The notes below the pieces were generated by a model. That model was not told where the DNA came from. It saw only the letters and a list, made by a program, of their open reading frames with translations, and ran no database searches. A DNA stretch of 64,000 nucleotides from Spirochaetia bacterium (lineage in GTDB: Bacteria; Spirochaetota; Spirochaetia; UBA9216): the NCBI GenBank assembly GCA_965140585.1, contig OZ223272.1:352001-416000 (forward strand), read 5' to 3'. The first letter of the stretch is position 1. Each line of letters opens with the position of its first letter. The position numbers and the translations under genes are program-made. Below are positions 1,363 to 7,360 of the stretch, piece after piece.

Positions 1363-1701
1363 CTACTCCTCTGTAAATCTGACCGTTAGTGGCCATAAGA
1401 TAGTTCCAGGCAGCTGGTTTACATCAATATCAACACCTTCATCTGTCCATGCACCAGAGTATAATAACTCTTTTTCAGATCCAATACCCCATAGTTCGAC
1501 ATCATCCAGGGTTAAATCAGATTCTGCAGCTATTTCAGCTGTCACCATATTATCTGCACCATTATCTTTAGAGCCGTCACGGTATTCGAAAAATACAGTA
1601 TATTCAGTTTCATTAATTAAAAGAATTGAATTACCGGATAAATTGCATCCAAATAAAATAAATGATATAAGGATAAGAATTAATAAATTTAACTTTTTCA
1701 T
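1363..1701 (-). CDS. Hypothetical lipoprotein
   Basis: MKK plus hydrophobic core plus LFGC lipobox. GGAG RBS upstream. Confidence 0.7.
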   Translation of the reverse strand: MKKLNLLILILISFILFGCNLSGNSILLINETEYTVFFEYRDGSKDNGADNMVTAEIAAESDLTLDDVELWGIGSEKELLYSGAWTDEGVDIDVNQLPGTILWPLTVRFTEE

Positions 1702-1848
1702 ATTTTTTCTCCAGGAATTATTTTAACTTCAATTAATAAATAAGTACAGTTCATTTTAGCGGTATTCAAATTCTAAGAATGATAGTCTCTTTTTTACTTT
1801 AACAGATCACAAAACTAAGCTACCAACTTTTTATTAAATATAAAAAAA

Positions 1849-1930
1849 GCCTGGCAGAGACGCCGAAGGCTTCTCCAATGACCGGAGAAAGTAGCGTTGC
1901 TACTATTTATTCTCAGCCATCCTTCCAGAC
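1849..1930 (-). ncRNA. Candidate structured RNA: miniature 5S-like three-way-junction element followed by a U7 tract
   Basis: Ends GTCTGG...CCAGGC-TTTTTTTAT are identical to the ends of the real 5S gene. The interior folds by eye into two helical arms (see findings). Confidence 0.4.
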
Positions 1931-1974
1931 TATCTATTATCTCTAAGCACTCAATTTTACTTGAGAACTTTCTC

Positions 1975-2057
1975 TGAAGTTTGGTGTTACCAAACTTCAA
2001 GTTCTTCTTAGGTCTTATATTTTATTTTCGCAGAACAGAAGTTCTGTGAAAATAAAA
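1975..2057. repeat. Two long inverted repeats in the rrn trailer
   Basis: TGAAGTTTGGT-gtt-ACCAAACTTCA (1975-1999) and TTTTATTTTCGCAGAAC-agaa-GTTCTGTGAAAATAAAA (2020-2057). Neither is followed by a U-run on the rRNA strand. Confidence 0.7.
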
Positions 2058-2060
2058 AAA

Positions 2061-2170
<110 letters not shown>

Positions 2171-2352
2171 TAATTATTCAAAAATAATTTATCGAAATGG
2201 ATGTTTTACTCGCAGAGTAAAACTCCATTATGATTTTACAAAGTAAAATCATACAGGGATTGAGTATTGGGCACGATAGGTTGCTATTCACAGGACTCTA
2301 TAGTCCATGCAGCCTATTGGCTCAATTCTCTGGGAATTGATTAAGGGGAAAT

Positions 2353-5343
<2,991 letters not shown>

Positions 5344-5443: not shown

Positions 5444-5530
5444 ATGAAAACATAAGGTTTTCAGTATCTTGCCTACTTAAAGGCCCGAAAAAATCAGCTA
5501 TTACTTATAGAAGCAATAGCCTACTTAAAT

Positions 5531-5604
<74 letters not shown>

Positions 5605-5821
5605 ATTAAAGTACCAAAGCACTTTAAAGTATAAAAAAGGAAGAAAGAGAACGGAGATGCAGCAAGCTGCATCTCGGAAATATAGCAAGCTATATTTCGC
5701 TGTGTTGTTTTTGCCTAACAGGCTGTTTTTCCATGACTATTAAAGCGTTAAAGCTTGTAAACAAACTCTAAGCTAAGTTTTAAACCGAAGTTTTCTAACT
5801 TAGTCACGTTCCTTTCACATT

Positions 5822-7360
<1,539 letters not shown>

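Follow-up and report, generated by a model that had tools for sequence, protein, structure and literature searches.

A non-coding module behind the 5S rRNA genes of a spirochaete closes with a copied 5S 3′ tail, a putative fail-safe terminator on a plan known from Escherichia coli

What is the short structured element that follows the 5S rRNA gene of a spirochaete rrn operon, and why does it end exactly as the 5S gene does? We analyzed this locus in a stretch of 64,000 nucleotides (the window, to which all positions refer unless stated otherwise). The operon lies on the minus strand, with 16S rRNA at 5823-7360, a spacer tRNA between 16S and 23S at 5531-5604, 23S rRNA at 2353-5341, and the 5S rRNA gene (rrf) at 2061-2169 (RF00001, 98.4 bits, E 5.9e-21). 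On the RNA strand, 5S ends in ...GGUCAUCGCCAGGC with U7 directly after it, and its last 7 nt, GCCAGGC (2061-2067, minus strand), are the tail that is copied downstream. The element occupies 1840-1932 of the minus strand and ends in ...GCCAGGC-U7-AU. A preliminary description, whose quoted letters agree with the window, had placed it about 130 nt behind rrf; the measured distance is 129 nt. No U-run follows either of the two hairpins between rrf and the element, as had also been stated. At gathering level, RF00001 and the rest of Rfam found only rRNA and tRNA in the window. We propose that the element forms the 3′ terminal domain of a module, conserved, non-coding, and about 215 nt long, in the rrn 3′ external spacer. 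The module is most likely a co-transcribed trailer with a fail-safe terminator, a reading that we favor with moderate confidence.

The link between the element and the 5S gene is a direct repeat. The 16-mer ATAAAAAAAGCCTGGC, which on the RNA strand corresponds to the 7-nt end of 5S or the element followed by U7 and AU, occurs at exactly two places in the 64-kb window (1840 and 2052), with 0 copies expected from 100 shuffles; this boundary copy is as exact as first reported. The 8-mer CCAGACTA, reported as the copy at the other boundary, is present at 1925 and 2165 and also at two unrelated places. Four matches compare with 1.28 expected, and 5 of 100 shuffles reach four, so this second copy is weak when taken alone. 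It carries little weight, since six of its eight bases are dictated by the need to pair with the tail copy, and relatives do not retain the additional TA. The stretch bounded by the repeat comprises 212 non-coding nt. An assembly artefact is unlikely as the origin of this layout: contigs from a DNA run span 1500-1882 and 1853-2060 with zero differences (the run is probably from the source sample and hence not independent), and the layout recurs at the genome's other two rrn copies and in five further genomes.

All three 5S genes of the genome that contains the window (G000) are followed by the trailer, and a genome-wide search placed the tail plus T-run at these 5S genes and at the three elements and nowhere else. 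Both other rrn copies match the window from 2360 down to about 1837 at 99% (query positions 1-524 of 661) and then diverge. The sequence common to the three operons ends at 1837-1841 (minus strand), the identity stopping three bases past the U-run. The preliminary description suggested that the element could be co-transcribed and provide the operon's end; the stop of three-copy identity near 1837 and a closing helix directly before U7 place the element in the rrn unit and make it look like that end. Downstream genes are co-directional with rrn in all three copies, and the nearest in the window starts at 1701. The two other copies carry the tail GCCCGGC (an A to C change at window position 1852) followed by U9.

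Five further genomes of the family were searched for 5S genes. G001, of the same genus as G000, has three, G007, of another genus, has two, and G005, of a third genus, has three; none was found in G004 and G006. At least one module stands behind each of the eight rrn operons of G000, G001, and G007, which hold 11 elements in total. In G001, up to three modules follow one 5S gene in tandem, intermixed with a second type of unit (X) that also ends in the 5S tail, and modules and X units together number two to four behind its three 5S genes. The element was not found behind the three 5S genes of G005, whose structured trailers end in ordinary hairpin terminators. We also considered and rejected a coding reading of the window module, a 61-codon open reading frame at 1815-2000 (minus strand), which is not kept in the modules of G001 or G007.

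The minimum free energy (MFE) fold of the window element reaches −33.3 kcal/mol, compared with −23.3 ± 3.5 for shuffled sequences (z −2.85; 3 of 200 shuffles were as stable). This fold equals the one drawn by hand in the preliminary description with one correction, the apical hairpin of arm 1 having 6 bp instead of 5. The closing helix (helix I) has 7 bp, formed by the 5′ strand AGUCUGG (1925-1931) and the copied tail GCCAGGC (1849-1855), which is followed by U7 (1842-1848), all on the minus strand; tail and U-run constitute the proposed second intrinsic terminator. Its pairs are A-U, G-C, U.G, C-G, U-A, G-C, and G-C. The A-U pair uses the first U of the U-run, six unpaired U remain, and the helix encloses 69 nt. 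Arm 1 (1877-1921, minus strand) consists of 8 + 4 bp with a bulge, a 5-nt internal loop, and the 6-bp hairpin. Across the family, its 3′ strand (CUCCGGUCAU) hardly changes, and its apical hairpin varies in sequence and stays paired. Arm 2 (1856-1876, minus strand; 5 bp, a 1×1 mismatch, and 3 bp) is an optional hairpin between GGUCAU and the tail and is found in 5 of 11 family copies. As a side observation, it occurs in five of seven last modules versus one of six modules that precede another unit, the copies being few and related.

Because the arms shift register between copies, elements were folded singly. The 12 folded elements have z-scores from −1.54 to −5.66, and 10 are closed in the MFE fold by the tail helix directly before the U-run. 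The exceptions are the C4 copy of G000 and one G001 copy, which pair GGAGAAGCC with GGC plus the U-run. The GCCCGGC tail, present in two of the three copies of the genome, introduces a U.C mismatch into helix I. Alignment of the element alone (MAFFT and RNAalifold) recovered only helix I, with no two-sided changes.

Is the element, then, a relative of 5S rRNA? The preliminary description had suggested a 5S-derived RNA that kept the Y topology of 5S and might act as a decoy for uL18/uL5 or for the 5S maturase. The resemblance lies in the letters of helix I (GUCUGG/CCAGGC, 6 to 7 bp identical to 5S helix I), in the U-run that follows, and in the three-way junction of the window copy, a Y shape that is formed again with other arm sequences in G007 and in two genomes of the wider class, G061 and G072. 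What 5S and the element have in common, however, is limited to 7 to 14 nt at the 3′ end of 5S, the U-run, and the bases that follow it. The element lacks the CCGAAC motif of loop C, helix II/III, and the loop E region, and its interior is unrelated to 5S. The suggested check with the Rfam 5S model came out negative: RF00001 gave no match at E ≤ 10 in 1700-2060 (the family threshold is 38 bits), and in the trailers of relatives it found true 5S genes only and none of the elements. Nor can the Y be the inherited 5S junction, since arm 2 sits between GGUCAU and GCCAGGC and thus interrupts what in 5S is the 3′ strand of helix I. The remaining 6 of the 11 family copies lack arm 2 and are single interrupted hairpins; in other genera, arm 2 has unrelated sequences. 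The arms are not conserved between genera, and their number ranges from one to three among relatives. On these comparisons, the element is not a 5S relative.

The proposed titration of uL18/uL5 or of a 5S maturase also fares poorly, as the parts of 5S bound by those proteins are missing. Profile searches of the genome, which is 98.5% complete, did not find RNase M5, RNase E/G, or Hfq; RNase Y, RNase III, and CsrA (90.9 bits) are present. We regard a 5S mimic as extremely unlikely.

What the element does share with 5S is its 3′ end. The part of the original claim that stands is the tail (GGTCAT...GCCAGGC), the U-run, and the next bases, and this tail tracks the 5S of each species. In the short form, the tail reads GGUCAU-AU-GCCAGGC, compared with GGUCAU(C/U)GCCAGGC in 5S. 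At the variable position of GGUC[A/G]U, the element matches the 5S of its own species in each of the six species: G000 and G001 have A, whereas G007, G061, G072, and G107 have G. The base preceding GCCAGGC agrees with the own 5S in some copies only. The contiguous stretch common to the 5S tail and the element measures 8 to 13 nt among relatives (13 in G072 and 11 in G107). The 5′ partner strand takes the forms GUCUGG, GCUUGG, CCUGG, or, in G072, a 12-nt perfect complement, and all of these pair with the tail. A 5′ strand that varies yet always pairs with a fixed tail points to selection for the closing helix, and not to 5S descent of that strand.

The element is the last part of a larger arrangement. 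The order on the RNA strand is 5S helix I, U-run, hairpin A, linker, hairpin B, a variable part, and the branched stem-loop. The tail of 5S recurs there as one strand of the closing helix, with the same U-run after it. Hairpin A (2020-2060, minus strand) is AU-rich, has about 17 bp and the loop UUCU, and uses as its 5′ arm the U7 that follows 5S (2054-2060); the partner is an A-rich run (about 2020-2028). It falls within a 103.7-bit match to R1, a covariance model of the first 100 nt of the module. The single-stranded linker, ...AG-ACC-UAAGAAG... (2001-2019, minus strand), is conserved in alignments. Its AGACC (2011-2015) is predicted to pair with GGCU of the 5S tail, and we call it the antitail; in most relatives it reads AGUCU, the letters of the 5′ strand of the closing helix. 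Hairpin B (1976-1998, minus strand), formed by GAAGUUUGG and CCAAACUUC with the loop UAACA, is followed by a conserved AGAGA. From there, AGAGAAAG and a variable stretch with a possible hairpin C lead to the element (1933-1975, minus strand, as seen in the alignment).

RNAalifold analysis of the first ~100 nt of 10 module copies predicted 30 pairs, 14 of them with two-sided changes that keep the pair. Hairpin A contributes 16 pairs, 9 of which show two-sided changes, and hairpin B 10 pairs, 5 of which do; the tail-antitail pairing is predicted at alignment columns 5-61, 6-60, 7-57, and 8-56. The covariation that the preliminary description had asked for is seen in hairpins A and B, but not in the element alone, where helix I is without two-sided changes. 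The family consensus runs GCCAGGC, U7-9, hairpin A (U-run arm/A-run arm), AG(A/U)C(C/U)UAAGA, hairpin B with AGAGA, and the variable stretch; its 3′ part continues with AGUCUGGAA(G/A), arm 1 ending in CUCCGGUC(A/G)U, the optional arm 2, the tail, and U7-9. The unpaired motifs AG.CUAAGA and CAGAGA, and also CUCCGGUCAU, are conserved.

R1 matched 9 of 151 class genomes at E ≤ 0.01, G000 included: G000, G001, G007, and G010 (family f1), G029, G061, and G107 (f20), and G072 and G117 (f41). In a phylum sample, also of 151 genomes, only G000 matched. G061, G072, and G107 have the same succession of 5S, U-run, hairpin A, and a branched element; in each, the closing helix uses a copy of the tail of that genome's 5S, followed by a U-run. 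Of the two modules in G061, one has a plain 62-nt hairpin as its element and the other a 94-nt Y, in which arm 2 is unrelated in sequence and has the same position. The element of G072 is a 99-nt Y whose 12- to 13-bp closing helix consists of the exact tail of its own 5S and a perfect complement, and that of G107 is a 115-nt four-way junction. A class-wide pattern search matched 27 of 401 genomes. On reading the matches, we found true elements in G000 (three), G001 (six), G007 (two), and G061 (one); the remaining matches resemble ordinary terminators. In all, carriers amount to only about six species, mutually related. Among metagenomes, a first pattern gave 0 matches, and a second gave three stretches with no 5S or rRNA sequence that look by eye like GC-rich gene-like DNA. 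Separately, a loose pattern matched at least 119 stretches in public genome contigs, from many unrelated phyla by record title.

Repeats of a gene end can also be left behind by recombination. The modules could be non-functional leftovers of duplication or insertion at the 5S 3′ end, which would serve as a site for recombination or landing, and in which a displaced tail copy met a partner strand by chance. Further 5S fragments in the trailers give this reading genuine support. Unit X of G001 closes with 18 nt identical to the 5S tail and also contains, inverted, a 13-mer that matches 5S positions 78-91 exactly, with scores of 36 and 26 against a shuffle maximum of 22; the X copy at C4a of G000 is decayed, and the number of modules varies among the G001 operons. 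In G005, two small open reading frames lie between a 5S gene and a copy of about 52 nt of the 5S 3′ half. Template-switch correction of quasi-palindromes acts on DNA and can likewise produce covariation where palindromes have short loops, and such template switching can keep palindrome arms complementary without any RNA function. However, debris does not explain a module at all eight operons of three genomes, the same part order in two more families, or a 5′ partner strand that varies and always pairs with the tail. Palindrome correction leaves the conserved single-stranded motifs unexplained, and the module contains neither a conserved open reading frame nor an integrase. We judge this origin unlikely, though not negligible, and continue to favor a trailer that is transcribed with the rRNA.

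How might such a trailer work? According to our model, the tail helix together with the U-run would be an intrinsic terminator used twice, once at 5S and once at the element. The first of these, 5S helix I with its U-run, is probably leaky, since its helix is long range; it would act as a weak terminator that lets some RNA polymerase read through into the module. At the element, the partner strand is only 65 to 85 nt upstream and would be brought close by arm 1. There, the second tail and U-run would stop the read-through polymerase and so shield the co-directional downstream genes from rrn transcription. Owing to the copied tail, the trailer RNA would receive the same 3′ end formation as 5S, and the released RNA would be about 190 nt long. 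More speculatively, hairpin A and the tail-antitail pairing might serve processing by RNase III or a switch in which 5S helix I and the trailer alternate. We infer co-transcription, termination, and a role of the released ~190-nt RNA from sequence and predicted structure. If termination at the U-run after 5S were complete, the module would never be transcribed.

The position of the stem speaks for this model, as it stands directly before the U-run in 10 of the 12 folded elements, that of the window among them. Two predicted features count against a terminator, the copies with the GCCCGGC mismatch and the 69-nt interior. A compact terminator hairpin has a loop of 3 to 8 nt, and a simple terminator scan did not call the element. 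That neither RNase E/G nor RNase M5 was found in the genome fits 3′ ends made by termination at the U-run. Available RNA runs share 5 to 7% of words, and their contigs on 1500-2600 cover conserved 5S and 23S only, with none on 1833-2017; this is rRNA of other organisms. A fail-safe stop makes sense behind the cell's strongest promoters, and a tail helix that abuts a U-run offers a simple, testable mechanism. For annotators and small-RNA searches, our results mean that trailer modules are to be expected behind 5S genes and should not be labeled 5S pseudogenes.

The same ~190-nt product could in principle come from a small RNA gene of its own, with a promoter in or after hairpin A and termination at the element. 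Hairpin A is followed by a conserved AUAAAAUAU similar to a −10 box, and a transcript running from there to the U-run would measure about 190 nt and include several conserved hairpins. However, no sigma-70-like site was called on the minus strand in 1650-2400, the −35 region would coincide with the part of hairpin A that varies, pairing with the U-run accounts for the A-rich motif, and modules are found solely behind 5S genes. A stand-alone gene is, on balance, quite improbable, and we retain the view that the trailer is made by read-through of the rrn operon.

CUCCGGUCAU, which is almost invariant, and the motifs of the linker are hints of a function beyond termination. One proposal follows by analogy with RrB of E. 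coli, namely that the RNA titrates CsrA and thereby reports rrn transcription. The CsrA gene is present in the genome, the element has three GGA motifs, and all 10 aligned copies keep the junction UGGAA unchanged; CsrA binding is reported for the E. coli counterpart (PMC8144298). Three GGA in 93 nt are nevertheless near a rough base-composition estimate (about 1.6), and the invariant GG is paired in helix I and not placed in a hairpin loop. A CsrA sponge therefore appears very unlikely. A broader idea, which is doubtful and which we raise for its consequences, is that several spirochaete families possess a class of small RNAs made together with rRNA, independent of the enterobacterial repeats discussed below. 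Their copy of the 5S end would give them 5S-like end formation and perhaps stability, and their level would report rRNA synthesis. If true, such RNAs would provide a readout in real time, either to CsrA, as for RrB, or to 50S assembly or 5S quality control through tail-antitail competition. Copying the 3′ end of a stable RNA onto a trailer would then be a general bacterial device and not an oddity of E. coli.

How does the module compare with known systems? Of the Rfam families, the TD-1 motif (RF03155) was examined and rejected; it matched the two hairpins on the plus strand (1966-2060) at 22.2 bits and E 0.16, against a gathering threshold of 64.5, with the hit cut at the end of the searched stretch. 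The other Rfam matches at E ≤ 10 in 1700-2060 were chance-level hairpins of the miRNA type only, and the same held for relatives.

The 3′-end copies left by integrative elements, as in islands anchored at tRNA or tmRNA genes, are similar in that direct repeats bound units which may be in tandem. They differ from the present case, which concerns structured non-coding modules of about 200 nt in all rrn copies, without integrase or cargo and with a complementary 5′ strand that turns the copy into a stem. We accordingly rejected an att duplication: the 212 nt between the repeats hold no integrase or cargo, and the module is found in eight of eight operons of three genomes.

A second comparison is with the terminators T1 and T2 of E. 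coli rrnB. Here as there, two signals stand in series behind 5S, the distal one being fail-safe, and a stem lies directly before a U-run. In contrast to T1 and T2, the spirochaete stem is a copy of the 5S end and encloses 69 nt of branched structure, and its termination is putative.

The closest precedent is found in the tRNA-linked repeats (TLRs) of E. coli, and the earlier statement that no element like this had been described does not hold in view of rrA, rrB, and rrF. The relevant sections of Stenum et al. 2021 (PMC8144298), which cite Egan & Landy 1978 and Rudd 1999, describe 22 TLRs at ten loci, one to five per locus, each a copy of the 3′ end of the upstream gene, 18 to 19 bp in E. coli, and with "no known function" since 1978. 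According to the same sections, rrA, rrB, and rrF lie behind 5S in rrnA, rrnB, and rrnD, between T1 and T2, and are made by T1 read-through (T1 is cited as 87% and T2 as 100% efficient); the Discussion calls the presence of two terminators behind some rrn operons puzzling (PMC8144298). The RNAs measure 173 and 115 nt, with the 5′ end 3 nt past 5S and the 3′ end 3 nt past the repeat, bind Hfq and CsrA, and have a lifetime of about 2.5 min; the authors propose that the repeat is an RNase E signal, and the paper places RrB homologues in Enterobacteriales only (PMC8144298).

Set against these repeats, the spirochaete module shares the location directly behind 5S in the rrn unit, 129 nt behind rrf and within the stretch common to three rrn copies, and an end that is the exact 5S 3′ end plus a few trailer bases. 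In the sequence of E. coli K-12 rrnB, the repeat of 18 nt comprises 13 nt of 5S and 5 beyond; the exact spirochaete repeat is shorter, 16 nt, with 7 of 5S and 9 beyond. Tandem units are likewise common to both (one to five per locus in E. coli and one to four in G001), with one unit in G000, several in G001, and two in G061. Two termination signals, proposed ones in our case, bracket the unit, and the RNA body is branched and about 170 to 215 nt long. Folding the 173-nt RrB stretch gave a predicted structure in which a 5′ segment is the partner of the tail copy and the resulting helix encloses a multi-branch loop. Past a 9-nt tail core, we found no similarity between the module and rrB (local alignment score 18, against a shuffle mean of 16.2, a 95th percentile of 20, and a maximum of 29), and the two lineages probably reached the same plan independently. 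As described for E. coli, the tail copy precedes a separate hairpin terminator (T1, T2), whereas here the tail helix itself is the proposed terminator stem. The described RNase E signal and Hfq binding set the E. coli repeats apart as well, since neither gene was found in the spirochaete genome; the E. coli explanation is therefore not simply transferable, and an RNase E site as in enterobacteria cannot be the whole story. The recurrence of this plan on unrelated sequence, in a distant phylum, and, in several genera, at each rrn operon speaks for a functional role of the 3′-end copy, in end formation or termination, and against an accident. By its layout, the module belongs to the rRNA-linked-repeat plan described in E. 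coli, of which it represents a spirochaete variant, and what is new in it is the copied 5S tail as a putative terminator stem.

The trailer module, a stretch of about 215 nt behind the 5S gene, comprises hairpin A, a linker, hairpin B and an element closed by a copy of the 5S tail and a U-run. We compared arm 2, the optional hairpin of this element, in three genera (window positions 1856-1876 and the equivalent places in stretches L025 and L184). In each case the hairpin is inserted after GGUC(A/G)U and before the tail, and its sequence is unrelated among the three genera. Arm 2 was found in five of the seven last modules versus one of the six modules that have another unit after them, counts too small for any claim.

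A second type of trailer unit, unit X (about 202 nt), was observed behind 5S in G001, a genome of the same genus as the source genome (L023:1610-1811, with further copies in L026 and L027). The unit closes with 18 nt identical to the 5S 3' end, which form a compact hairpin followed by U8; near its 5' end, a 13-nt stretch of 5S (positions 78-91) recurs in inverted orientation without mismatch. All three 5S genes of G001 are followed by unit X. The source genome carries it behind one rrn copy only, C4a (L004, after about 1840), as a decayed copy whose tail has degenerated and which has an insertion inside. Two of the three rrn operons of this genome lie on contig C4 in the same orientation, with 8.8 kb between their 5S genes (197022-197130 and 205798-205906) and other sequence separating them.

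An additional repeated unit, UGGGAACCUC...GGAGAAGGC plus a U-run, stands in tandem behind the tail-capped element in the trailers of family f41 (L185:1500-1800 in G072; L188:40-200 in G117). In this family, the complete complement of the 5S tail (GCCUGG) comes after hairpin A; tail and antitail, the linker segment able to pair with the tail, therefore form one long palindrome.

Behind one 5S gene of G005, from a third genus of the source family (L028, about 1500-2400, reverse strand), a trailer with an ordinary terminator is followed by two small ORFs and then by a partial 5S copy, the 3' half of about 52 nt, with a T-run of its own. By size and layout alone, the ORF pair is toxin-antitoxin-like, and the arrangement is a gene cassette with 5S-end copies as borders. 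In G239, from another family, two contig ends (L049:1-90 and L056) share an identical first ~80 nt, in which AT-rich non-5S sequence precedes the 3'-terminal ~28 nt of a 5S gene and a T-run. This start represents either an insertion-bearing 5S or another tail-capped unit.

Within the window operon, R1, the covariance model built from the first 100 nt of the trailer module, matched a hairpin in the 16S-tRNA spacer (5670-5759, minus strand; 22.2 bits, E 0.0017). This hairpin, GAAAUAUAGC-UUGC-UAUAUUUC followed by CGAGAU, is similar to trailer hairpin B. Comparable positions upstream of 23S were weakly matched by R1 in G001 and in G007, from a second genus. Behind the spacer tRNA (5471-5537, minus strand), we detected GGCCCA-A-UUUAAGUAGGC after the tRNA 3' end and, 48 nt on, a second occurrence as GGGCC-UUUAAGUAGGC, with a hairpin and then a U-run between the two. 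This arrangement within the 16S-23S spacer is a small layout resembling tRNA-linked repeats.
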